Shown: positions 3,572 to 20,450, counted from the stretch's first letter. The stretch: 32,000 nucleotides of DNA from Pseudidiomarina andamanensis (GCF_009734345.1 NZ_CP032551.1:1590001-1622000), one strand, 5' to 3'. Notes: generated by a model not told the origin, from the letters alone. Program-made: numbers and translations.

Positions 3572-5503
3572 TCATTCTTTTAACGAGAGTTCTTCCATGA
3601 CAGTTCTATTTCCACCACGACGCTTCGCTAAATAGAGCTGGGTGTCAGCTGTTCGAATGACATCGCTCGCTAATTGCCCAGATTTAATTGGGGCGACACC
3701 AAAGCTAATTGAGAGTGCGCCAATTCCTGAAGCGCTGTAGTTGTGTTCAATACCAAGATGCGCGATGCCGCTACGCAGGTTATCAATATAATTTGGCTGT
3801 GCGGCGAGAATTCGTTGCGGTAAAATAATTGCCAATTCTTCCCCGCCATATCTATACACACTATTTTGCTCACAGGCATTCATTAAATATTGTGCGATTT
3901 TTTGTAGCGCTTGATCACCTGCTTCGTGGCCATAATTATCGTTATATGCCTTGAAACTATCTAGATCTCCTAAAACCAATATCGACGGCTCGCTGTCAGA
4001 TTGTAGCGCCTGAGCTAAATCACGATCGAAAGCTCGACGATTAAGTAAACCCGTTAAGCCATCCATATTTGCCAGCGCTTCAAGCATTTTATTTGCTCGC
4101 GCAAGCTCGCGAGTACGCTGGTTTACTTTTTCTTCGAGCTGCTCTTGCGCCTTAATAAAGCGCTTCGCCATGGTCACAAAGGCATTCAGAGCATAGCGCA
4201 CTTCACCCTTTAATTTACCTTTTAAAGTATTGCCCGCAAGAACGTCTTTATAGTTACGGGCATCCATCATTGAGGCCACATAGGCCATTTCCGTGAGTGG
4301 TTTACTCACGTCGCGTCGAACCAGTAAATACACAACCATCAACACCAGTAATACCAGCGCAACACCGCCAACGATAAGCCGTACAGGTAAAACAGCGGCC
4401 TCGCGTTGAATATTCAGTTTTGGATAAATGGTGACATACCACCAGTTCGGATTATCGATGCGTTGGAACGTGACCACATGGTCCTCGAAAAAATCATCTA
4501 ACGTCGACGTGTTTGCGCTGAGTTCTCCACTTAAAATTTTCGCGTTAATACTTAAAAATGCTGGATCTGGATAAGTCTCAGGGGTCAGCAACGCTTGCTC
4601 TTGAACGAGATCAAACGCGATATTTGTTGCGGAGATTAACTGCCCCTGGCTATTCAGAACGAAATGCTCGGCATCTGGGCGTTGCCGCTGCGTAAGGTCA
4701 GCGAGTAATTGGCTGATGCCCACATCGAAACTAGCATTTGCGAGATGCTTTCCGGCATAGTCGATCGGCCGCTGATAAGTAATGGTCCAATAGCCTGCGG
4801 TAATATCGTAGTACAAGCCGGTCCAATTCGGTTTGCGCTCAGGGTTTTCACTCTGCAAGGTTGATTTCACGACCGAGTAATTAGTAATCACGAGGTCTTT
4901 GTCTGCGAGTAGTCCCCAGGGTTGATCTGGAGAGTACAGCATTAATATATTTTCGGGCATGGAAAAATGCGTATTAGTGACAACATGCTGCCAAGCAGGA
5001 CCTAACTCGTTGAGAATACTTAGAGCAACCGTTGACCGTAACTTTAACTCGGGTGTTATCGGGTTTGGGCGAGGCCCAACGAACGCTGACAAATACTCAA
5101 AGCGCGTGTTATCGATAGTTGTACCGCTGTGAAACGTGACTGGCAACCGCAGTACACCTGGTGATGTTTCTTCATACCACGCATCAAACGCATCAACCGC
5201 CTGCTGATAACGCCGCGAATTGGTGTCGTTATAAAACTCATAGCGCTGAACAAATCGCTCCGCCAGCACATCACCAAATGCTTCAATACGCTCAAAAAAC
5301 CGTTGATTACGTTCTATTTTTTGTGCAACGTCGCGGTTTAAATCGCTAATAAACTGATGCTTTGCGTTTTGGTAAACAACATAGAACGTCACAATCGAAC
5401 CGAAAATGACCAGACCAATCGCCCACGCACTAACACGAAGAAGGAGTCGTGTCGTTAAACGCTCAGTTGCATGTAACCTTCTGTCATTGCGGCGACGTTC
5501 CAT
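3572..5503 (-). CDS. Sensor diguanylate cyclase: TM, about 325-aa periplasmic (Cache-like?) domain, TM, coiled coil, GGDEF domain with a GGEEL signature
   Basis: 643-aa ORF with TM helices near residues 20-44 and 370-395. C-terminal GGDEF-domain motifs DGLTGLLNRRAF, DLDSFKAYNDNYGH and YRYGGEELAIILP (motif at 3833-3847). Confidence 0.85.
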   Translation of the reverse strand: MERRRNDRRLHATERLTTRLLLRVSAWAIGLVIFGSIVTFYVVYQNAKHQFISDLNRDVAQKIERNQRFFERIEAFGDVLAERFVQRYEFYNDTNSRRYQQAVDAFDAWYEETSPGVLRLPVTFHSGTTIDNTRFEYLSAFVGPRPNPITPELKLRSTVALSILNELGPAWQHVVTNTHFSMPENILMLYSPDQPWGLLADKDLVITNYSVVKSTLQSENPERKPNWTGLYYDITAGYWTITYQRPIDYAGKHLANASFDVGISQLLADLTQRQRPDAEHFVLNSQGQLISATNIAFDLVQEQALLTPETYPDPAFLSINAKILSGELSANTSTLDDFFEDHVVTFQRIDNPNWWYVTIYPKLNIQREAAVLPVRLIVGGVALVLLVLMVVYLLVRRDVSKPLTEMAYVASMMDARNYKDVLAGNTLKGKLKGEVRYALNAFVTMAKRFIKAQEQLEEKVNQRTRELARANKMLEALANMDGLTGLLNRRAFDRDLAQALQSDSEPSILVLGDLDSFKAYNDNYGHEAGDQALQKIAQYLMNACEQNSVYRYGGEELAIILPQRILAAQPNYIDNLRSGIAHLGIEHNYSASGIGALSISFGVAPIKSGQLASDVIRTADTQLYLAKRRGGNRTVMEELSLKE

Positions 5504-7944: not shown

Positions 7945-8361
7945 TCAACCACCATATTTGAGGTAAGCCATGAGCGCGTCACGGTCTTCTTGTTTTGGTA
8001 AGCCAGTGAACGGCATGCACATGTCTTTGACCATTTTTTGTGGATTTTCTAACCACTCGTAAAGCGTCGACTCTGTCCAAACAATATCATGTTGCTTCGT
8101 GGTTTCAGGAAACGTGTAACCTTCAATTGTCGCAATTTCACGATTGAATATATTGGCTAAATGAGGGCCGAAGAATTGGCTCTTGTTCGGATCCATGCTG
8201 TGGCATGCAGAACATTTGTATTTGAAAACTTTGGCACCTTTTGCAATGACGGCAGGGTCGTTTGGAATGGTTGAAGTTTGTGTTGACGATTGAGCTTGCG
8301 GCCCAATTGATTCGCAACCCAACAACAGAATCAACGGCAATATCCCAATCAACCTTTTCAC
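7945..8361 (-). CDS. Class I (mitochondrial/c2-type) cytochrome c, lipoprotein-anchored
   Basis: 138-aa ORF with a GTG start. Lipobox LILLLGC. Haem motif CSACH inside GAKVFKYKCSACHS. Downstream blocks GPHLANIF...GY.F, LYEWLENPQKMV and MPFTGL...EDRDALMAYLK are typical of cytochrome c. GAGG SD lies 7 nt upstream. Confidence 0.85.
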   Translation of the reverse strand: MKRLIGILPLILLLGCESIGPQAQSSTQTSTIPNDPAVIAKGAKVFKYKCSACHSMDPNKSQFFGPHLANIFNREIATIEGYTFPETTKQHDIVWTESTLYEWLENPQKMVKDMCMPFTGLPKQEDRDALMAYLKYGG

Positions 8362-8370
8362 AAAATACCT

Positions 8371-9141
8371 CTACTTCGTACGAATATAACGACTCAGATG
8401 ATACGCGCTCATATGAACTTCGTCATCTCGGAGTTGCTGCCGACCATTGGCCAAATAATTCGGGATGACTTGAGGGTTCAATACCGCTATTTCGGCCGAG
8501 CGACCTAAATCCGTTGTTTTCACATACCACCCAGGAAAAACCACGATACCTTTTACCGGCAGCCGCTTACCGGTGCTTTCAAAAAGTAATTTATGTAGCC
8601 ATGCGCTTGCGGCTTTAACTTGGGTAATAGCGTCTGATTGCAATGGCTTACCGCCACGCAATATTTGTTTGCCATTGTAAAATAATACCGACTTGGAATT
8701 GCTCGATTTCGACATAGTTTTCGTTTCAATCACGAACACACCAGAGCGGTGAATCACGACATGATCGAGGTTAAAGTTTTCACCTTCAATATCGTGAAAT
8801 ACTTGCGCACCATCCAAACGAAGCCGCTCAAGAAATTGACCTACCGCTTTTTCGCCGTCGCGGCCGAGTTTGATTTTATTTGTTTCTTTAAAGGCTTTTG
8901 CAAGACGAACGCCAAAGAAAATCGCTGCAACACCACAAATAACAGAAATTGTGACTGCGTCAGGCTTTGCATCACTAAGTGCATATATCCACGAAAAGGT
9001 AACTGCCAGAAAAAGGATAATTAAAACCATAAAATTGAAAATTACGCCGTCTAAAGCGACATCGATTAGACGCCGATCAAGTGATTCACCAGGATTTCTC
9101 AGGGGCTTATCTTTGAGGGGTGAAATTTTCTGACTTTTCAT
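8371..9141 (-). CDS. Membrane-anchored NERD (nuclease-related) domain protein
   Basis: 256-aa ORF with two N-terminal TM segments. NERD-type core GRDGEKAVGQFLERL...GAQVFHDI...NLDHVVIHRSGVFVIETKT. Its TAG stop overlaps the SD of the cytochrome c gene. Confidence 0.8.
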   Translation of the reverse strand: MKSQKISPLKDKPLRNPGESLDRRLIDVALDGVIFNFMVLIILFLAVTFSWIYALSDAKPDAVTISVICGVAAIFFGVRLAKAFKETNKIKLGRDGEKAVGQFLERLRLDGAQVFHDIEGENFNLDHVVIHRSGVFVIETKTMSKSSNSKSVLFYNGKQILRGGKPLQSDAITQVKAASAWLHKLLFESTGKRLPVKGIVVFPGWYVKTTDLGRSAEIAVLNPQVIPNYLANGRQQLRDDEVHMSAYHLSRYIRTK

Positions 9142-9317
9142 GGCTACTCCTTAGCGCTTCTTTCACTATTTAATAGCGTGAACAAAATTAAATGTCCATT
9201 AATCTACAAAAATGGCGGGCTGTATCAACTTGTTAGGTCGCCAATTTGATGGAAATTTCCTAAACTACGTCACAGTTACTTTACGAAACAACAGTTCGAC
9301 TGAAAAGAGACTCCCAC

Positions 9318-9947
9318 ATGCCACTACACGTGATCAAACACCCGCTGATTCAGCACAAACTTGGTTTAATGCGCGAAGCAGATATTTCAACCAAGAGCTT
9401 TCGTGAATTAGCCAATGAACTTGGTAGCTTACTGACTTATGAAGCGACGAAAGACTTCGAATTAGAACCACATACGATTAACGGCTGGAGTGGCGAATCG
9501 ATTGAAGTTGAAAAACTCAAGGGCAAAAAAGTCACAGTGGTACCTATCTTGCGTGCGGGAATTGGCATGCTGGATGGCGTACTCGATTTAATTCCCAGCG
9601 CAAAGGTGAGTGTCGTTGGCTTATATCGCAATGAAGAAACCTTAAAGCCGGTGCCCTATTTCCAAAAGTTGGTAAAAGACATCGACCAACGCACAGCTTT
9701 GGTGATTGACCCAATGTTAGCAACGGGCGGCACGATGGTGGCGACACTCGATATGTTGAAACAACATGGCTGCAAAGATGCGCGAGTTTTAGTGCTCGTT
9801 GCTGCGCCAGAAGGTGTGGATAAAGTTCTCGAAGCGCATCCAGATATCCACATTTATACCGCTGCACTTGATTCACATTTAAATGAACACGGCTATATTG
9901 TTCCTGGCTTGGGCGATGCCGGCGATAAGATATTCGGCACCCGATAA
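9318..9947 (+). CDS. upp: Uracil phosphoribosyltransferase
   Basis: 209-aa [27 protein letters not shown]-binding loop [12 protein letters not shown] and C-terminal [16 protein letters not shown] are canonical Upp blocks. Confidence 0.95.
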
Positions 9948-9962
9948 ATTGTTTAACTTTTG

Positions 9963-10006
9963 TTGACGTTTGCCGAAAAAAAATACTATAAAAGGGCAAA
10001 CGTCAA
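9963..10006 (+). other. Perfect 12-bp inverted repeat between upp and the 10020 operon; candidate upp terminator hairpin and/or operator overlapping promoter-like hexamers
   Basis: TTGACGTTTGCC (9963-9974) and GGCAAACGTCAA (9995-10006) with a 20-nt A-rich spacer. The left arm contains TTGACG, and TATAAA lies 18 nt downstream (9987-9992). There is no T-run after the stem. Confidence 0.45.
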
Positions 10007-10019
10007 AAAAAGTTAAGCT

Positions 10020-11642
10020 ATGAAAACAACAAAAATACTTGGCTCATTGAGCCTCATCAGCCTTTCTGCTTTATTCTCGCCTTCAAGTTATAGTTCCGAT
10101 GTATTGGTTTCAGCCGATTTTAATGTCGGGCAAGGCTTTAATTATTTGGTTAACGGCACCTGCTATGTGGTGACACCGAAACACGTCATGGGCGACGCCA
10201 CTACTGCGAATATTATGCTACCAACTCGGCAGTACTTCACCGCAGACTTAGCACATGTATTTGATGTCGACATGGCAGTTCTTGAATCGAACATTCCTGA
10301 GGCGCAATGTAATCGAAATACATTTTTACAGGTCAGCGATTTAAAGAAGCTCTTGGAAGTTTATCAAACAGGTGTTCTCAAAACGCGTTTGGCTGATGGC
10401 AGTGTATTGCAATCGAAAATCGTGATTAATACCGTAGATGAAACAGAGTACCTAGCGATAAAACCCGAACGTGCAGACGAGCCATTCAAGCAGGGTTATA
10501 GCGGCAGCATTTTGTTTGTGGCAGAACAGGCTGCGGGTGTATTACTTGAAGTGGATGATGAAGGCGGTGTGGTTTATCGGGCAGATGCACTGACAGGTAT
10601 GCTGGATGAACATTTTGGTGTTAACGACGAGCCTGAGGCAACAGAAACAGCGACTACTGAAGAGACAAACGCAGATGATTCAGCGGTAACCACGAATTCG
10701 CATTTGACAGGTCGGTTAGCGAAAAACCAAATTAAAGATCATGAAGTGAAAATGCTGGAAAATAGTCCGGTCGAGTTTGTATTGAAGGCTACTGAAGGCA
10801 ATCAGATGCAATTCTCAATCCTGATTATGGATCGTCGTGAAAATAAGCTTCTCGATTACAAATTTTATAGTACTAACGACTATAACTTTGCGTTTACACC
10901 ACCTAAGTCAGATACATATATTGTTCGACTTTTAGGGGTAAGTTCATTTGGTGAATTCGATATTAAGCTTAATGATTTTGCATTCGATGCAGAGCTTCGT
11001 GGCGACGGTAATAGTTTTCAGATACCGACCACAATAACGCCAAAAGTTGCGAAGGATTCCATAGCCGAATATAGATTTAATGGTGAAACTAACAGTCCCA
11101 TAGAGATGTTGTTTAATGAGGTTAACGGGCAACAGTTTAGATATGCTGCGCATATATTGAATAGCGCCGATGAAGTGCTCCGAGAATATGAGTTTTACTC
11201 TACAAATAGTTACGCCTATGCATTCACGCCGCCAACAAACGACGAATATACTTTGAGACTTTTTGGCACTCGTCATTACGGTACAACCAATATCGGCATT
11301 ACGCAGTGGGTAACTGATGCTGAACTCAAGGGTGCGCAGAACGTTGTCGTTGCCGGTGAAATGATGACCGGAAAACTTGCATATAACGCAGTTGCAGAAT
11401 ATCGAATGATGATGAAAGCAAACGCACCGATCGACTTCAAATTTGAACCGAACTCAGGCGATATGAGATATCGTCTCGAGATTTTTGATGAAACCGGTGA
11501 AAGAAAATACAGCGATGAGTTTTATACAAATAACGAATATCGTATTGTGTTTACCCCATTATCTTCCGACGTACACCTTATTCGTTTAACCGGAATAAAA
11601 AGTCATGGTAACTACACCATTAAGTTGTTTGACTATGATTAA
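10020..11642 (+). CDS. Secreted chymotrypsin-fold (Trypsin_2-like) serine peptidase with an acidic linker and three 110-aa PPC-like repeats
   Basis: 540-aa ORF with signal-like N-terminus MKTTKILGSLSLISLSALFS. Ordered triad contexts: CYVVTPKHV (His55, 10182-10184), DVDMAVLE (Asp84, 10269-10271) and GYSGSILF (Ser161, 10500-10502). Thr/Glu/Asp-rich linker, then three repeats. Confidence 0.7.
   Translation: MKTTKILGSLSLISLSALFSPSSYSSDVLVSADFNVGQGFNYLVNGTCYVVTPKHVMGDATTANIMLPTRQYFTADLAHVFDVDMAVLESNIPEAQCNRNTFLQVSDLKKLLEVYQTGVLKTRLADGSVLQSKIVINTVDETEYLAIKPERADEPFKQGYSGSILFVAEQAAGVLLEVDDEGGVVYRADALTGMLDEHFGVNDEPEATETATTEETNADDSAVTTNSHLTGRLAKNQIKDHEVKMLENSPVEFVLKATEGNQMQFSILIMDRRENKLLDYKFYSTNDYNFAFTPPKSDTYIVRLLGVSSFGEFDIKLNDFAFDAELRGDGNSFQIPTTITPKVAKDSIAEYRFNGETNSPIEMLFNEVNGQQFRYAAHILNSADEVLREYEFYSTNSYAYAFTPPTNDEYTLRLFGTRHYGTTNIGITQWVTDAELKGAQNVVVAGEMMTGKLAYNAVAEYRMMMKANAPIDFKFEPNSGDMRYRLEIFDETGERKYSDEFYTNNEYRIVFTPLSSDVHLIRLTGIKSHGNYTIKLFDYD
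10707..11639 (+). repeat. Three tandem protein-level repeats with an exact 110-aa period (starting at residues 230, 340 and 450) inside the 10020 gene
   Basis: Aligned anchors: TGRLAKNQIKDH / TPKVAKDSIAEY / TGKLAYNAVAEY; NSPVEF / NSPIEM / NAPIDF; FYSTNDYNFAFTPP / FYSTNSYAYAFTPP / FYTNNEYRIVFTPL; YIVRLLG / YTLRLFG / HLIRLTG. The nucleotide sequences are strongly diverged. Confidence 0.75.
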
Positions 11643-12309
11643 ACGTCTAGCTGCGGTTGCTGTACTTGTTGCTAGCTTGGGTTTGGCGCAAGCGAATCAG
11701 GTGAGTGAGTTTACCGAGTCATATAGCGAAACGGTGAAGGTGTCTGGGCAATTTTTGAAAGGGTTACAGTTCACCGATGTGGATTATGCCGTTGCGCCTC
11801 ACCTTTACTTTCCAAGTGTTTATCAGGGGCCGGTTTGTATTTATGTCAGTAGCGCAGATGGTCGATACAAATCGCAATATCAATATACCTTGACTGAACC
11901 CACGGAAGGATTAGTCAGTATTGAGTTCCCCACACAGTATATTAATGAACTAGAAGAGTTTTCGCCTGGCGAATTAGGCTTGCTCGCAAACGCACAACAA
12001 GATTGTTCATCATTAAACGGTAACTATTTAGTGGGTTCTTGGGGAATGCCAAAATCCATGACGAATATCGCCGTATTTCTTCGTAGTAATGCTCGTCGGG
12101 ATGTAGCAACCATTTTTGGTCGTGATGATGGCGAAAATAAGACCGCACCCATCACGGTAAAATGCCAAGATCTACGAAGTAATTATCGCGTTTCTTACGA
12201 CAAAGAATGCGTGTTACAGGGTGTTAATACCAATCAGATGACACGAGTGGTTATTAAACGTCGAAACTTACGCGCAATGCCAGATGAAGTGGTTGAGTTA
12301 TTTCAATGA
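11635..12309 (+). CDS. Hypothetical secreted protein with four cysteines
   Basis: The ORF track starts at 11605. I prefer the in-frame ATG at 11635, which gives a canonical Sec signal MIKRLAAVAVLVASLGLAQA-NQ and overlaps the upstream stop (ATGATTAA). I recognise no family. Confidence 0.65.
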   Translation: MIKRLAAVAVLVASLGLAQANQVSEFTESYSETVKVSGQFLKGLQFTDVDYAVAPHLYFPSVYQGPVCIYVSSADGRYKSQYQYTLTEPTEGLVSIEFPTQYINELEEFSPGELGLLANAQQDCSSLNGNYLVGSWGMPKSMTNIAVFLRSNARRDVATIFGRDDGENKTAPITVKCQDLRSNYRVSYDKECVLQGVNTNQMTRVVIKRRNLRAMPDEVVELFQ

Positions 12310-13250
12310 AACCACTCAATTTCAAAACATTATTCCGTAAAACCGCAAAATTTTTATTCGGAATTTTTCTCACTAACGAAGATTTACCTTATTCCGCAAC
12401 TGAGTTTCGTGACCGTATCGCGCAAAGCTCACTGCGTTGGCTATTGCATATTTTAGTGGGATTATTTTGGCTGCTATTAGCCTACATTGTTTTCATTTCT
12501 CTTCGGTTTATCAGTACCCCCGATACGCTCTACAACGTTACAGCACGTTCCGAAATTATTGCCATTGATTCATTCCAAAATAGTGCATTTGTTCCGTGGC
12601 AACTTGAAGGCGTTACACGTTATGCACAATGTGGCAGCGAAACGTCTCTTGTATCTGGACAACTTCAAGTAGCACAGGATACGTCGGTGTATATTGAGCG
12701 AATTGGGACGGATTCTGTGTGGATAACCTTAAGCTCAGCAACGCTAGCACCCGTAGGCTTTATACAAACTCGTAACGAGCGTATTGAATTAAGTGATTGT
12801 GAAGCTTTTGAGTTACAGGCTTCGGCAAACAACAGTTATACGCTGCCTATAGATGGCGTCATGACCATTGGCGGTGAAGTAAAAGAAGCATCAGCGCGTG
12901 AGCCTATACTGCATCGAGGTTCTGTCGCAATTTCTGATAAAGGCGCTTGGTCGGGTCAATATTATCAAACCGAGCCATATGCACTTGAATTAGGCGATAA
13001 GTTTTTTATTCAGAACCCGTCTATTCAAAGCTCTGGATTTATTTATGTTGATGATTCGCCGGGTATGCAGATTACATTCAATGGAAAAGGCGACGCCGGT
13101 GTTATTCAACGCTATAAATCTGAAGATATTATTCTAAAGAATAGTATTTGGACGAAATTAGCCCACGACGAGAGTTTGTTGTTTCTCTGGCTATTTCTCG
13201 TTGCTGCCTTTTCGCTCCTGAAATTTGTTATTCGGGTGAATATTGAATAG
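12306..13250 (+). CDS. Hypothetical membrane protein: N-proximal TM, about 230-aa extracytoplasmic beta-rich domain, C-terminal TM
   Basis: 314-aa ORF with an ATGA overlap onto the upstream gene. TM segments WLLHILVGLFWLLLAYIVFISL and LLFLWLFLVAAFSLLKFVI. Two Cys in the central domain. I recognise no family. Confidence 0.7.
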   Translation: MKPLNFKTLFRKTAKFLFGIFLTNEDLPYSATEFRDRIAQSSLRWLLHILVGLFWLLLAYIVFISLRFISTPDTLYNVTARSEIIAIDSFQNSAFVPWQLEGVTRYAQCGSETSLVSGQLQVAQDTSVYIERIGTDSVWITLSSATLAPVGFIQTRNERIELSDCEAFELQASANNSYTLPIDGVMTIGGEVKEASAREPILHRGSVAISDKGAWSGQYYQTEPYALELGDKFFIQNPSIQSSGFIYVDDSPGMQITFNGKGDAGVIQRYKSEDIILKNSIWTKLAHDESLLFLWLFLVAAFSLLKFVIRVNIE

Positions 13251-13254
13251 CCAC

Positions 13255-14298
13255 TCAAGGCATACCAAGTACTTGATCTCGCCCTCCGTGTTTAGCGCGA
13301 TATAAATTTTCGTCAGCGCTAAGTAGTAACTGATCGATGGTATCGGTGCCATTGTTTGTATACGTTGCCGTGCCGATACTTACCGTGATGTGAATATTAT
13401 TTTCGATAGCTTCAGCGCGCACATTTTCAATAATTCTCTGGCCTAATTGCATCGCTTGTTGTTGATTGGTATTCGGGCAAATAACTAAAAATTCTTCACC
13501 GCCCCAACGGCCTAAAGAATCCGTTTCACGAATTGTGTCGCGTAGCACATCACAAAGTTTGATCAGAACTTTGTCTCCGATGAGATGACCATACTTGTCA
13601 TTCACGTCTTTAAAATGGTCGACGTCGAGAAGCAACACGGATACCGGTTGATTAGCCCGATTAGCCTGAGAAATTACCGCGCTTAAGGTGTTATCTAAAT
13701 GTAATCGGTTAAATACTTTTGTGAGAGGATCCGTAATCGCGGTTTTTTGTAATTGGTCGTAGGCTTCTTGACGTGAGTTTTCATAAAAACGAAATAGAAA
13801 TACCTGTGCGGTGGCTACTTCAATAAAATTAAATAGCGCTCCTAAGCTCAAATTAGCAGTGACTTGCTGATTAATGAGTTGATACATGTACCAACTACAA
13901 TATCCTAATATTATGGCGCTTACCCAAGAGCCATCACGCCGCCCTAATAAAAAGAACGCGAAAGGCGGTAAAATAGTTACCCACATTAATGAGTAATTAC
14001 GTCCTTCAGCGAGATGAACAAACGCTAATAAAATGGTGGCAATCGCAATTATGACGGCCCAACTGGCAACTTTGAAATTTCCGCCCTTGTTCACAAACCA
14101 GAGAATAGATACCGCGAGGGTAAGGCCAAGATAATCGAAGAATGCAATTTCGGGGGCATCAAATAACGTGATGTTGAGCGTGCCAATAATTCCGAAATAG
14201 GCAATCATAATCAGCAAAATGCTGTAAATCAGCGAGACTTGTTTGTAGCGCGGATCGGCTGCATCAATATCGGGATGGTATTTGCGCCAAAATTTCAT
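13255..14298 (-). CDS. Diguanylate cyclase with a polytopic N-terminal membrane domain; GGEEF active site and RxxD I-site
   Basis: 347-aa ORF with about 5-6 TM segments. Motifs DPLTKVFNRLHLD, DVDHFKDVNDKYGH, RETD-SLGRW-GGEEF (GGEEF at 13489-13503) and LYRAKHGGRD. Confidence 0.9.
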   Translation of the reverse strand: MKFWRKYHPDIDAADPRYKQVSLIYSILLIMIAYFGIIGTLNITLFDAPEIAFFDYLGLTLAVSILWFVNKGGNFKVASWAVIIAIATILLAFVHLAEGRNYSLMWVTILPPFAFFLLGRRDGSWVSAIILGYCSWYMYQLINQQVTANLSLGALFNFIEVATAQVFLFRFYENSRQEAYDQLQKTAITDPLTKVFNRLHLDNTLSAVISQANRANQPVSVLLLDVDHFKDVNDKYGHLIGDKVLIKLCDVLRDTIRETDSLGRWGGEEFLVICPNTNQQQAMQLGQRIIENVRAEAIENNIHITVSIGTATYTNNGTDTIDQLLLSADENLYRAKHGGRDQVLGMP

Positions 14299-14433
14299 AA
14301 CGTCACTTTACATTGTTATTTTGAATATCCTAGCTGTGTTTTTAACGAATTGGAATTAACTTTGTGAATGACTAGCCGAAAGTCTTAATCCGTGATTTCA
14401 TGGTGGCAATACCGCATATATTTTAGGTGCACA

Positions 14434-16518: not shown

Positions 16519-18936
16519 TTAATGCTTATAACGGCGAGGGGTTTCGCCGGGCTCGGGGAGTTGGAATATATAGAGCCAGTCATTGCCAACAAGCTGTTGA
16601 AGTATTTCATGCTCGGCGACAATCGCAGCGATGCGCTCCATTGGGGCATCAATGTACACGCTCAGGCGCAGTGGCTCGTGACGATATTGCTGGCCGTCGT
16701 GAATCGATTGCCAGGCGAGGCCGATACGTAAGTCACCACCATTACCTTCAAACACACCCAAGCGGCCGCCCACCACGTTGTGCAGGGTTTTATTGCCGCT
16801 GCCGAAACGCTGATTATCCACCGTCGAGCCGAAATACTGCAGATTAATCCAATTCGTCACAATCATTGGCGCCGTCATAATTTGCGTAAGCACAGCACCG
16901 TCGGCATCTTGCTCAGGGTGATAATCATGCAAGAAGCTCCGCCCTGCTAAACAGAGCCCGCGGGTACGCTCACGCGGCGCAATCACAAATGCCGCATTAT
17001 TGGTTAAGCCCCACTCTGGGCGAGTCTGCGACCAGTCATAAGCGCGACGAACAAACGCTGAACGACGTTTATCAAGGCTCGCCTCGACAAGCTCCAAACC
17101 TAAAGTTGGTGCTCGCTCTAGTCGTGCTGCATCACTGGCGCGCGCCAAGTGCAGCTCAACTTGTGCCAACTGCGATTGCCAACTGGCCGGCACCGCATTA
17201 GCTTCATACAAGGTCACATCTTCTGTGGTGGTATTGTGCAAAGCTGCCATAAAATAGGTGGTTTTTGGAATGATAATGCCACGCTCGACCAAGCCGCGAC
17301 GAATCTCTTTATGATTCAACAACTGTGCTAATGCGCGGGCGTTCACTTCGCCGGTTTGGCCACAACACGCGCCACAATCCAAACCTGCCCGCTGCGGATT
17401 ATTCTGGCTAGTACTGCCGTGCCCTACCAACAAAACCAATGGTGCAAAACCTGATGTCAGGCCCATACCCGTCAACACGCCAGCAGCAAGATCCACACGC
17501 GCTGGCAGAACTTCGGCATCCACGCTCAAAGTCGGGCGTAACGAACAGCTGTCGTCTTCCGAAAGTCCGAGATTATCAATGCCGTTATTATCTGCTTTAA
17601 AGAAGCTCGCCTTCAGTAACTTACCTAAGTACCCCATGCCCAGCGTTTCCACCAAGCTAAATGACGAAGCTGGTACATTACTAAACGGCCACAAACTGGC
17701 TTTTTCTTGTAATTTCACGCGACGAATCGTTGCTAGCTCGACATCTTTCGAAGCATCACCGCTGCTATCGGTCACATTCAAACTCGGTGCCAACAAGCCC
17801 GGCAACTGCGCACGAGTGCTCTGTGTACCCAACGGGGTATAATCAATTGGCAGCCCGAAGAACCCAGCAAAACCGCCAGTGCGAATACCGTCAGATTGCG
17901 CTTCAAAGTGACGGCGAAACACTTCTGAGCGCACATCAATACAGAAATATGCTTGTACTTCTGGCGTATCGGAAGCATTCAACGGCTTCTGCATCAACAC
18001 CTGCGCCAGCTGTTCCTGATAAGCCATTTCATGCGCGCGCTGCCACACCAGCAATTTGCTGCGTGACAAGGAATCATAATCACCGATTTTGTCCCACAGT
18101 GCGCGCCAACGCACCCAAACGCTGTCGTCTTCGCGACCGCCACTGTCAACCAACCATTCCCAGCTTGCGCGAATCGCCAGTAACTCCATCAACGAGGTAT
18201 CGGTTTCGCCGCGCAAGTTCGCTTGCCACGCGCGATACGAGCAGGCTGCCGCCCACCCACTCACACGCATGAGAACGGTTTCCAGCCATAAATCCCATTG
18301 TTCTGGTGGGATATTTAACGACTGCAGAACCTGCGTGAGTTGCTCAATCGGGTCGCTGTGCATGGCATCAGCACGCGCAATCAAATCATCGCTATGCATT
18401 AATACGCGAACGCTACGGTCATGGCGAATTTCATTCAACCAGCTTGCATATAGCGGTGAATCTTTATGTGGGTGCCACGCCGCTTGATATTCATCAAAAT
18501 AAGCCGCGCAAAATTGCGAGACTTGAAACGTCACCGTCTCATGCCAGCCTGGCTCATGACTTAAGTCGCGGGTTTTATCGTAGCAATCACTCAAAAGCGG
18601 TAGCGCCAGCGGTTTATAATTTTTGCCGCCTACAAAGCTGACCAAATGAGTCATCGAATGCTCAGAGCTCAGTTCATCCATGGCTTGTTGCAAATGCGAT
18701 TCTTGAATCACGCCATCTTGCCAAAGCTGCGCGTAGTAGTCGTTACGCATTGAAAGCGGTGATGCAGCCGTAAGCTCAAGTAACTTGGCTGCTTTAGAAA
18801 ACGGTTGATGCGACCGCCCCCAATATGGGTTCACCGCAATCATTTGATCTAACGGCCACGCCGGAGCAATATGCGCGCATGCCGCTGCAATAGCTGTTTC
18901 TACTTGGGCTCGTAAATCGTTTTGCACCTGACTCAT
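16519..18936 (-). CDS. dabA: DabA (DUF2309/MpsB-type) subunit of a DAB inorganic-carbon pump
   Basis: 805-aa ORF. Beta-carbonic-anhydrase-like ligand motifs FCIDVRSE (Cys332 at 17941-17943, Asp334, Arg336) and VGHGSTSQNNPQRAGLDCGACCGQ (His506 at 17419-17421, Cys521 at 17374-17376). ATGA overlap with the upstream NuoL-like gene. Confidence 0.85.
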   Translation of the reverse strand: MSQVQNDLRAQVETAIAAACAHIAPAWPLDQMIAVNPYWGRSHQPFSKAAKLLELTAASPLSMRNDYYAQLWQDGVIQESHLQQAMDELSSEHSMTHLVSFVGGKNYKPLALPLLSDCYDKTRDLSHEPGWHETVTFQVSQFCAAYFDEYQAAWHPHKDSPLYASWLNEIRHDRSVRVLMHSDDLIARADAMHSDPIEQLTQVLQSLNIPPEQWDLWLETVLMRVSGWAAACSYRAWQANLRGETDTSLMELLAIRASWEWLVDSGGREDDSVWVRWRALWDKIGDYDSLSRSKLLVWQRAHEMAYQEQLAQVLMQKPLNASDTPEVQAYFCIDVRSEVFRRHFEAQSDGIRTGGFAGFFGLPIDYTPLGTQSTRAQLPGLLAPSLNVTDSSGDASKDVELATIRRVKLQEKASLWPFSNVPASSFSLVETLGMGYLGKLLKASFFKADNNGIDNLGLSEDDSCSLRPTLSVDAEVLPARVDLAAGVLTGMGLTSGFAPLVLLVGHGSTSQNNPQRAGLDCGACCGQTGEVNARALAQLLNHKEIRRGLVERGIIIPKTTYFMAALHNTTTEDVTLYEANAVPASWQSQLAQVELHLARASDAARLERAPTLGLELVEASLDKRRSAFVRRAYDWSQTRPEWGLTNNAAFVIAPRERTRGLCLAGRSFLHDYHPEQDADGAVLTQIMTAPMIVTNWINLQYFGSTVDNQRFGSGNKTLHNVVGGRLGVFEGNGGDLRIGLAWQSIHDGQQYRHEPLRLSVYIDAPMERIAAIVAEHEILQQLVGNDWLYIFQLPEPGETPRRYKH

Positions 18937-20450
18937 GAAATTATCTCCTTCGAAGCATCCGTTTGAGCCGGCGGCAATGGCCAGATCTTAAAGGTTATCA
19001 AGGTAAAACGTTCATCGAGGTAAAAACCGTTGTAGGCCCATGGGTATAAACGACGCGACCATTTGTGCTGCGGATACAATTGAACCAAGAGTTGTAAACC
19101 AAACAACGCCACAAACACGAAGGCCACCCAAACAACTAACGCAATGTGTGTATCGCCCTGACTTGGTACCGCGGCGGCAAATAGTAAATGCCAAATAAAA
19201 TACAGCTGGGTCAACATGAACACACGCAGTAAACCGAGTCGGAAAAGCTTCGCCGTCATATCGCGCTGCGGCCACAGGAGTGGCGCAAAACCAATGGTGA
19301 GAATAATCAGCGCCACCCAACTCACGTGAAACTGCGGTAGCACCCACTGCCACACCACAAACGACACGCCAATGACTGCGGCGCTAAACAATGGGCTTAA
19401 TACATACAAATTTTTACGCGTCACACTATAAGCCGGGTCCAACAAACGTTGTAGCCGAGCCTGTTCAACAGCCTCACCGGCGCTCAAGAACGCGTAGGCC
19501 TTGTAAAGCGAATGAGCCACCAAATGCAACAGCGCCAGCTCATATAAGCCCAGGCCAATTTCCATAAGCATAAAGCCCATCTGCGCGCAGGTAGACCAAG
19601 CCAACCGTACCTTAATACTGATTCGAGTCAGCATGACTAAAGCTGCAAGCGCCGCTGATAAGCTCCCCACAACCACCAACAAAGCTTGGGCAATGTCGCT
19701 TTGCGCCAGCATCGGTGCCATGCGCAATAACACAAATCCAGACAAGTTAACGACACCGGCATGTAGCAACGCTGAAATCGGTGTTGGCGCCTCCATGACT
19801 TGAATGAGCCAACCGTGCAATGGTAACTGCGCGGTTTTCAAAATTGCCGCCAGCGCGACCAGCACAATTGTCAGTTCAAGCCAAATAGACAGCTCGGAAA
19901 ACTCGGTAACATGCGTATTAATCTCCGCAAGATTCAGCGAGCCAACGTCGATATAAGTGAACGTGACCGCCATTAACAACAACACGTCAGCAAGGCGGCT
20001 AATAATGAATTTCTTGTGTGAGACAATTTGCGCAGCGCGACGCTGATGATAGAACAACAGTAACTTATGCAGCCCCACACTCGTCAACGACCAGCCAAGC
20101 AACATCAATAGTAAGTGGTCACTAACAACAATCAAGCCGACGTTGGCCAGGGTGAATAACGTGAACTGAATAAACATGATTTGGTTGGGCTCACCCTGCA
20201 AATAGTGCTTCGCAAAGCGTGTAACCACCCAACCCAAAATGGCAACAAGAACAATCACGACCAGCCCGACCCGATCAGCCGGTGCGGCACTAAACGCTGA
20301 AAAGAGCACTAACATCACTGCGCACAACAATGCGCTTAGTGAGGTGAGCTTGGCAACTTGCCATAGCATTCGTGGCGGCGCGACCAAGCTAGCGAGCCAG
20401 CCAATCAACCAAACAGCGGCAAAGGGCCATGTTTCAAGCATGTGATTCAT
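18933..20450 (-). CDS. dabB: DabB (MpsA/NuoL-like proton-conducting membrane transporter) subunit
   Basis: 505-aa polytopic ORF (about 12-13 TM) with an NADH dehydrogenase subunit 5/Mrp antiporter-like core: LLHAGVVNLSGFVLLR, MGFMLMEIGLG and HLVAHSLYKAYAFL. Stop TGA overlaps the dabA ATG. Confidence 0.85.
   Translation of the reverse strand: MNHMLETWPFAAVWLIGWLASLVAPPRMLWQVAKLTSLSALLCAVMLVLFSAFSAAPADRVGLVVIVLVAILGWVVTRFAKHYLQGEPNQIMFIQFTLFTLANVGLIVVSDHLLLMLLGWSLTSVGLHKLLLFYHQRRAAQIVSHKKFIISRLADVLLLMAVTFTYIDVGSLNLAEINTHVTEFSELSIWLELTIVLVALAAILKTAQLPLHGWLIQVMEAPTPISALLHAGVVNLSGFVLLRMAPMLAQSDIAQALLVVVGSLSAALAALVMLTRISIKVRLAWSTCAQMGFMLMEIGLGLYELALLHLVAHSLYKAYAFLSAGEAVEQARLQRLLDPAYSVTRKNLYVLSPLFSAAVIGVSFVVWQWVLPQFHVSWVALIILTIGFAPLLWPQRDMTAKLFRLGLLRVFMLTQLYFIWHLLFAAAVPSQGDTHIALVVWVAFVFVALFGLQLLVQLYPQHKWSRRLYPWAYNGFYLDERFTLITFKIWPLPPAQTDASKEIIS

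Follow-up and report, generated by a model that had tools for sequence, protein, structure and literature searches.

What kind of system is encoded by three tightly coupled genes, one of which looks like a protease and two of which belong to no named family? This question is raised by a stretch of 32,000 nucleotides (nt) from Pseudidiomarina andamanensis (GCF_009734345.1, NZ_CP032551.1:1590001-1622000; hereafter the window, with positions counted from its first letter), in which the genes that we call A, B and C follow one another on the same strand (Table 1). A preliminary description, made from the sequence alone, had reported three overlapping genes here, and both the calling of open reading frames (ORFs) and a base-by-base reading of the junctions bear this out: A and B share the stretch ATGATTAA at 11635-11642, which holds the ATG of B (11635-11637) and the TAA of A (11640-11642), and B and C overlap in ATGA at 12306-12309. 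We consider it very probable that A, B and C belong together in one functional, extracytoplasmic module. With moderate confidence, we also favour a fuller statement, namely that they make up a single extracytoplasmic proteolytic machine, in which A docks on C, carries a swappable arm and cleaves under the control of a ligand.

The evidence that carries this view is comparative. A profile of C retrieved 370 representatives at 50% identity clustering (E ≤ 1e-3; 190 at ≤ 1e-10), and hidden Markov models of A (its protease domain only), B and C were run on every ORF of the contigs of diverse C members and of three plasmid or chromid matches. In these scans A, B and C were adjacent and co-oriented in 15/15 untruncated independent loci, amongst which the Pseudidiomarina chromosomal site (the window, L003, L004, L006 and L007) is treated together, the others being L002, L005, L009, L010, L012, L013, L014/L015, L016, L017, L019, L020, L021 and L025; in three truncated loci the break falls at the ends of the contigs. 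The B profile matched the B gene in every locus, with E between 1e-21 and 1e-106. Adjacent homologues were thus found in Idiomarinaceae, Thalassotalea, Vibrio, Pseudoalteromonas, a Nitrospirae metagenome-assembled genome (MAG) and metagenomic contigs, so that the synteny which the preliminary description had proposed as a check holds in every complete locus examined. Word-indexed homology searches returned only Idiomarinaceae and a few outliers, and these outliers were already syntenic. Recurrence in all of the untruncated loci places the clustering of the trio far beyond chance. The coupling is also tight: junctions overlap or are separated by ≤16 nt in most loci (a JGI contig with the order A-B-C preserves the gene overlaps), the gap being 42 nt in L014 and 50 nt in L017. 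Such overlaps suggest that the three proteins may be co-expressed stoichiometrically.

The order of the genes is not fixed. A-B-C is found in the window, L003, L004, L006, L007, Idiomarina aminovorans (L005), L002, L010, L016 and the Vibrio tubiashii plasmid pFP31, with A duplicated in Thalassotalea marina (L002) to give A-A-B-C, and Enterovibrio coralii shows B-C at a contig end. The order is B-C-A in L012, L013, the Vibrio plasmid p09022A and a Pseudoalteromonas chromid, and in L009, L014/L015, L017 (the Nitrospirae MAG) and L025, B is followed by a single polypeptide in which C runs on into A (a C~A fusion). All of the long proteins among the 150 best matches to the C profile (8/8) are such fusions, with the protease domain placed after a third transmembrane (TM) helix, and therefore facing the same compartment as the β domain of C. 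The pairing of shuffled gene order with fusion is classically taken to mark proteins that act in one complex. These natural fusion proteins strengthen the guess, voiced in the preliminary description, that the protease comes with a partner and a membrane anchor.

What, then, is the protease? Gene A had been described as lacking a recognisable family, and here the picture has changed. The triad that had been read by eye is where it was said to be, with His55 in TPKHV, Asp84 in DVDMAVLE and Ser161 in GYSGS; and His55, Asp84, the G159-x-S161-G-S motif and the pair Cys48/Cys97 (the only two Cys in A) are invariant in an alignment of 10 homologues, down to 32% identity. The triad also persists in distantly related A domains of nine further loci or fusions, other phyla included, so that His, Asp and Ser are conserved among A homologues as had been anticipated; the one exception is a degenerate copy. 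This copy belongs to L014/L015 (L014 3742-9577), where a C~A~pentapeptide fusion carries Ser, Gly and Ile in place of His, Asp and Ser, and after it comes a separate A-pentapeptide paralogue whose triad is intact: by these residues, a predicted pair of pseudo-protease and protease. Against Trypsin_2 (PF13365) in Pfam, the window A scores 17.2 bits (E 0.009), below the cut-off of 27.6, and two of its orthologues exceed that gathering score (P0015 at 28.9, P0016 at 28.0). The Ig-like matches of the window A likewise stay below threshold, and its NCBIfam, PADLOC and PHROGs scans gave nothing significant. A profile built from the 10-homologue alignment recovers the PDB structures of DegP, DegQ and DegS (E ~1e-4), and the regions around His and Asp line up. 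On the strength of the invariant triad, these profile matches and the orthologue scores together, we assign A as a putative distant HtrA-like S1 protease, PDZ-less and followed by three PPC/PKD-like repeats, and its conserved triad predicts that it is catalytically competent. It shares with HtrA/DegP (MEROPS S1C) the order His, Asp, Ser and the contexts TnaHV, DlAll and GxSGs. However, the match to PDB members of that group is weak and covers the N-terminal barrel only, and the one or two C-terminal PDZ domains are absent: Pfam and NCBIfam scans found no PDZ domain in A or in any orthologue, the arms being Ig-like, pentapeptide or FGE-sulfatase instead. At the N-terminus, orthologues have A-x-A followed by S/A-D-V at the same place as the predicted cleavage site of A.

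The second half of A is where the loci diverge. In the window, the acidic linker and the three repeats noticed beforehand are indeed present, the repeats, about 105 residues long, being 31-36% identical to one another (BLASTP E 6e-17 to 8e-26). Taken alone, they have no significant Pfam match, and those of orthologues pass Pfam thresholds: P0009 for PPC (34.2 > 25.9), P0015 for PKD (43.3 > 23.5) and PPC (38.2), and P0016 for Y_Y_Y (41.5 > 26.6). Such Ig-like arms are shared by the window and other gammaproteobacteria; elsewhere the region after the protease domain consists of pentapeptide repeats or an FGE-sulfatase domain, and in short forms of A (348-351 residues) no C-terminal domain was recognised. 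In the Nitrospirae locus the C~A fusion is followed by a separate 613-residue TIG-domain protein, which has no match to the A profile.

Could A be an ordinary degradative protease, secreted by a marine heterotroph, with B and C as helpers in folding, anchoring or self-protection? The thought comes readily, since PPC domains are typical of such enzymes, the orthologue repeats score as PPC and PKD, the hosts are marine Alteromonadales and Vibrionales, and A has a predicted Sec signal. Yet the marine proteases with PPC domains (PF04151), which A resembles in carrying PPC/PKD-like repeats C-terminal to the peptidase domain, are released enzymes, usually subtilisins or metalloproteases, whereas the protease domain of A is nearest to HtrA-type quality-control enzymes rather than to secreted trypsins. 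The C~A fusions moreover tie the protease of some lineages to an inner-membrane protein with two or three TM helices, and a protease so tied could not be released into the medium; the arm is exchanged elsewhere for pentapeptide repeats or FGE-sulfatase; and the trio is rare in these genera. We therefore regard a purely degradative role as improbable.

Table 1. Positions of the three genes, the domains of A and neighbouring features in the window, counted from its first letter
Feature	Position	Strand	Description and basis
Gene A	10020-11642	+	ORF, 540 aa; predicted secreted S1 (Trypsin_2/HtrA-like, PDZ-less) serine protease with three Ig-like repeats
A, predicted Sec signal peptide	10020-10094	+	Residues 1-25, cleavage at about SYS/SD; n-h-c layout read from sequence
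A, protease domain	10098-10619	+	Residues 27-200; His55, Asp84, Ser161, Cys48/Cys97 pair
A, acidic Thr/Glu-rich linker	10620-10700	+	Residues 201-227; sequence; weakly conserved columns in homologue alignment
A, three tandem PPC/PKD-like β-sandwich repeats	10701-11639	+	Residues 228-326, 327-436, 437-540; pairwise BLASTP
Gene B	11635-12309	+	ORF; predicted secreted protein of ~200 aa, tandem β-sandwiches (model), four conserved Cys; unnamed family
Gene C	12306-13250	+	ORF, 314 aa; predicted two-pass inner-membrane protein, ~220-aa periplasmic β-rich domain; unnamed family
Promoter-like site TTGACG - 18 nt - TATAAA	9963-9992	+	Within the 72-nt upp-A spacer; sequence reading
MASE6-GGDEF diguanylate cyclase, convergent neighbour outside the module	13255-14298	-	Pfam GGDEF 4.6e-47, MASE6 1.1e-11

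Genes B and C are a different matter, for the earlier failure to place them in named families has stood up to every library consulted. Searches of both against Pfam, NCBIfam, PADLOC and PHROGs gave only sub-threshold noise and no family; 77 members of the C family gave scattered single-member matches in Pfam (best E 0.0019), with no family common to two members; and the C profile found nothing below E 0.08 among PDB sequences. Both AlphaFold2 models are confident: that of B (predicted local distance difference test, pLDDT, 79; predicted template modelling score, pTM, 0.77) shows tandem β-sandwiches, and that of C (pLDDT 81) a β-rich domain between terminal hydrophobic helices. Foldseek comparisons of the B and C models with the PDB, and of C with BFVD, yielded no match at E ≤ 0.001, with TM-scores ≤ 0.25: the best for B, at 0.25, is a weak likeness to tandem Ig/FnIII-like receptors, and the best for C is 0.13-0.14. 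A run of Foldseek matches suggesting that C is leukocidin-like was rejected, its TM-scores being ≤ 0.13. Comparisons by hhalign of B with C, and of B with the A repeats, detected no relationship. The features that had been read from the sequences of the two proteins were also recovered: B has four Cys and C two, and the TM helix placed near each end of C agrees with both hydropathy, which puts the hydrophobic helices at about residues 47-69 and 291-311, and the model. This layout of TM helix, β domain and TM helix is kept in nearly all members of the C family, most of which have fewer than 30 cytoplasmic residues. The conserved Cys pairs in A, B and C would fit an oxidising compartment.

How might such a trio work? 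As a membrane-docked protease complex, it would have C anchored in the inner membrane, its two ends cytoplasmic and its β-rich domain displayed in the periplasm, and A, exported by Sec, would work docked on C at the outer face of that membrane. The interchangeable region after the protease would be a ligand- or substrate-binding arm, made here of three Ig-like PPC repeats and at other loci of pentapeptide repeats, FGE-sulfatase or TIG, and B would be an exported, disulphide-bonded β-sandwich protein serving as an obligatory third subunit - perhaps as the substrate, as a shield or as an adaptor. Once the arm had bound a periplasmic cue, cleavage of B or C would be licensed, whereupon the membrane protein would change its state. 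Signal sequences, TM sequences and conserved Cys pairs suggest this localisation; we infer the docking of A on C, the targets of cleavage and every step past ligand binding, and we put forward the biological role of the trio as a proposal only.

The nearest working analogy for this putative logic is DegS-RseA-RseB of the E. coli sigma-E pathway, which combines a protease plus sensor domain, a membrane substrate and a periplasmic shield. Here as there, we would have an S1 protease that is associated with the inner membrane and carries a sensing domain, a membrane protein that exposes a domain in the periplasm, and a β-rich periplasmic partner exported by Sec; and DegS is amongst the structures with which the A profile aligns at the His and Asp regions, as are DegP and DegQ. 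However, A lacks the PDZ domain of DegS, and C, unlike RseA, spans the membrane with two TM helices and has at most a small cytoplasmic domain, with nothing to hold a sigma factor. Neither Pfam nor NCBIfam detected an anti-sigma domain in C, no rpoE-like or extracytoplasmic function (ECF) sigma gene was seen in the window or in the other examined loci, and RseB, with its LolA-like fold, was not amongst the Foldseek PDB matches of B (TM-score ≤ 0.25). We rejected membership of this class of anti-sigma switch, as the trio fails on every defining feature but the protease fold. A further parallel is offered by SpoIVB-SpoIVFA/BofA of Bacillus sporulation, where a membrane protein complex is switched when an exported serine protease cuts its extracytoplasmic domain. 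This is the kind of act that we propose for A-B-C, although SpoIVB belongs to the S55 family, has other partners, is specific to sporulation and shows no homology to the trio.

Several points weigh against the membrane-docked machine as we picture it. Signal peptides and topology were judged by eye and hydropathy only, and the mutual contacts of A, B and C are putative. With almost no cytoplasmic domain in most C homologues, an output of the RseA kind is hard to picture, and by Foldseek the folds of B and C are unlike those of RseB and RseA. The evolutionary rates, which we count in favour of the machine, call for similar caution, since dS is near saturation and the contrasts between them are rough and indicative only: relative to Pseudidiomarina marina, dN is 0.163 for the A repeats, 0.078 for B, 0.036 for the A protease domain and 0.018 for C, such that the A repeats and B change their amino acids 4-9 times faster than C. 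The dN/dS of 0.01-0.10 for A, B and C in the same comparison means that they are real coding genes, all three under purifying selection. Positive selection was considered and is unsupported, with dN/dS < 0.1 and dS so close to saturation. Within Pseudidiomarina, the protein products of flanking genes, katG and upp for example, are 96-99% identical.

The surroundings of the module raise another possibility. About half of the independent loci lie amid defence-type or mobile genes within a few kb (a raw count). In Thalassotalea marina (L002 1-7348), the genes directly upstream of A-A-B-C encode an AAA_11/12 helicase, an MkoB-like protein, a PDC-M26A-like AAA_5 ATPase (McrBC-like) and a DUF2357 protein, a four-gene block that looks like a defence island. 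The 31-kb plasmid p09022A of Vibrio sp. 09022 carries HNH, SinI restriction endonuclease and phospholipase D (PLD) genes, and its B-C-A (L020 5538-10604) lies between two serine-recombinase genes, so that the module may be a mobile cassette there. B-C-A of Pseudoalteromonas (L021) is surrounded by NERD, DEAD-helicase, HNH and methyltransferase genes, with NERD flanking the module, and in the window too a NERD gene lies 0.9 kb upstream of A. EAD11, BrxR and Cas_NE0113 genes are each found near one further locus, and transposases at others. On a Logan contig (L018, 1671-2810), the Cas_NE0113-family gene directly follows B-C. The trio of I. aminovorans (L005 2069-14422) sits within a run of six genes, encoding proteins of 178-1045 residues, that have no Pfam or PADLOC match.

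Might the trio then be an anti-phage or inter-bacterial conflict system of the envelope, in which the arm of A senses a molecule of the invader in the periplasm and the cleavage of B or C then bars entry or makes the membrane permeable? Beyond these neighbours, the idea draws on a patchy spread, with the module rare and not general amongst its host genera of Alteromonadales and Vibrionales: a motif scan of 185,579 species genomes found 6 loci only, although the C alignment used was narrow and recovered close relatives only, and 3/72,556 plasmids carry it. In I. aminovorans the trio occupies a different locus than in Pseudidiomarina, and in the window the stretch 8000-14300, which includes NERD, upp, A-B-C and the cyclase, has a GC content of 0.41-0.44, below the 0.46-0.52 of its flanks. 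Pentapeptide repeats and FGE-sulfatase domains, moreover, serve as sensors or effectors in predicted conflict systems (PMC7159879). Against this, A, B and C have no PADLOC-DB v2 match at E ≤ 1, the module sits amongst housekeeping genes in L016, L017 and L025, its mean dN/dS is far below 1, and with the motifs used no homologues were found in 50,697 phage genomes (INPHARED) or in IMG/VR. We know of no characterised defence system built only from such periplasmic parts.

Amongst the nearest published systems are the trypsin-centred conflict systems that Kaur, Burroughs, Iyer and Aravind describe (PMC7159879, PMC8195603), in which trypsin is found with Trypco1/2, EADs, FGS and pentapeptide repeats; these are cytoplasmic and built on NTPases, namely MoxR-vWA, STAND and GTPases. 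A-B-C resembles them in joining a trypsin-like peptidase to FGE-sulfatase (FGS) or pentapeptide repeats with small partners of unassigned fold next door, and in the EAD11 gene near one locus. It differs in that A, B and C are all predicted to be exported or membrane-embedded; Pfam found no Trypco1/Trypco2 or NTPase family in B, C or the 77 members of the C family, and the examined loci have no conserved NTPase neighbour. We thus hold a conflict role to be possible but unlikely. It is with the same reserve that we mention its boldest form, in which the trio would be an unrecognised class of envelope immunity, a periplasmic sensor-protease with swappable recognition domains acting on B and C, two new protein families, at the inner membrane so as to stop an invader before or during genome entry, with its whole action outside the cytoplasm and neither NTPase nor nuclease.

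On the other side of the module, C ends with its TAG at 13248-13250, and the stop of the minus-strand GGDEF gene lies at 13255-13257, at the distance of 4 nt that had been noted before. The encoded cyclase has GGEEF and an RETD (RxxD) I-site besides its MASE6 membrane sensor domain. One reading, which takes up an earlier suggestion of a matrix-processing unit, is that the trio processes matrix or biofilm material in a manner linked to cyclic di-GMP (c-di-GMP), acting with the adjacent enzyme. The convergent MASE6-GGDEF gene does adjoin C in four Pseudidiomarina genomes, a PAS-GGDEF gene follows C in Thalassotalea, and in Pseudoalteromonas the module has an EAL gene 3.6 kb away. But the Thalassotalea protein is unrelated, sharing only the catalytic domain with the window cyclase; no GGDEF/EAL neighbour is seen in I. 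aminovorans, Enterovibrio, V. tubiashii, p09022A or the metagenomic loci; and GGDEF genes are frequent here, with two in the window itself (3572-5503 and 13255-14298, both on the minus strand). The comparison thus lends the suggestion no support, linkage to GGDEF being confined to Pseudidiomarina and, with a different protein, Thalassotalea; we rejected the cyclase as a feature of the module, and we judge a c-di-GMP-linked role to be very improbable.

Some details of the window concern the module's borders. The longest possible ORF of B begins at 11605, and the start is most likely 11635, because the orthologue P0024 begins at the equivalent Met and a signal peptide follows directly after that Met. 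Upstream of A, the TTGACG and TATAAA hexamers are unchanged in 5 Pseudidiomarina loci, and we take them as the candidate promoter of A; a consensus promoter scanner did not list this site, its rule demanding T at the final -10 position. An imperfect inverted repeat of 27 nt (89% complementary, with a 20-nt spacer) at 9948-10021 spans the upp-A spacer and the promoter-like site, and could be a upp terminator or an operator; its arms, unlike the hexamers, are not kept in two more distant Pseudidiomarina. The NERD gene (8371-9141, minus strand), which has an N-terminal TM region, is 81% identical to its P. marina protein with a dN/dS of 0.40, and changes far more quickly than the neighbouring katG, cytochrome c and upp, which are 96-99% identical to those of P. 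marina. Further away, at 16519-20450 on the minus strand, a DabA-like gene (PF10070, E 3e-255) stands beside a Proton_antipo_M-family gene, a pair that looks like a DabAB-type inorganic-carbon pump.

Where does this leave the trio amongst what is already known? An extracytoplasmic protease with membrane and periplasmic partners is a known kind of system. What is new, as far as the libraries searched reach, is the B and C families and the trio itself, of which we found no description in the full-text literature searched, including PMC7159879 and PMC8195603. B and C stand as families of hundreds of members across phyla that have neither name nor domain model, and no structural relative that could be detected. 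What ties them to a recognisable protease is the strongest kind of comparative signal available: invariable co-occurrence, shuffled order and fusion. Even the conservative outcome would give domain definitions to B and C, and several hundred 'hypothetical proteins' would disappear from annotations. If A-B-C is a ligand-gated protease switch of the periplasm, it would represent a new design in the surveillance of the bacterial envelope; and were an anti-phage role to prove true, a class of periplasmic immunity would come into view.

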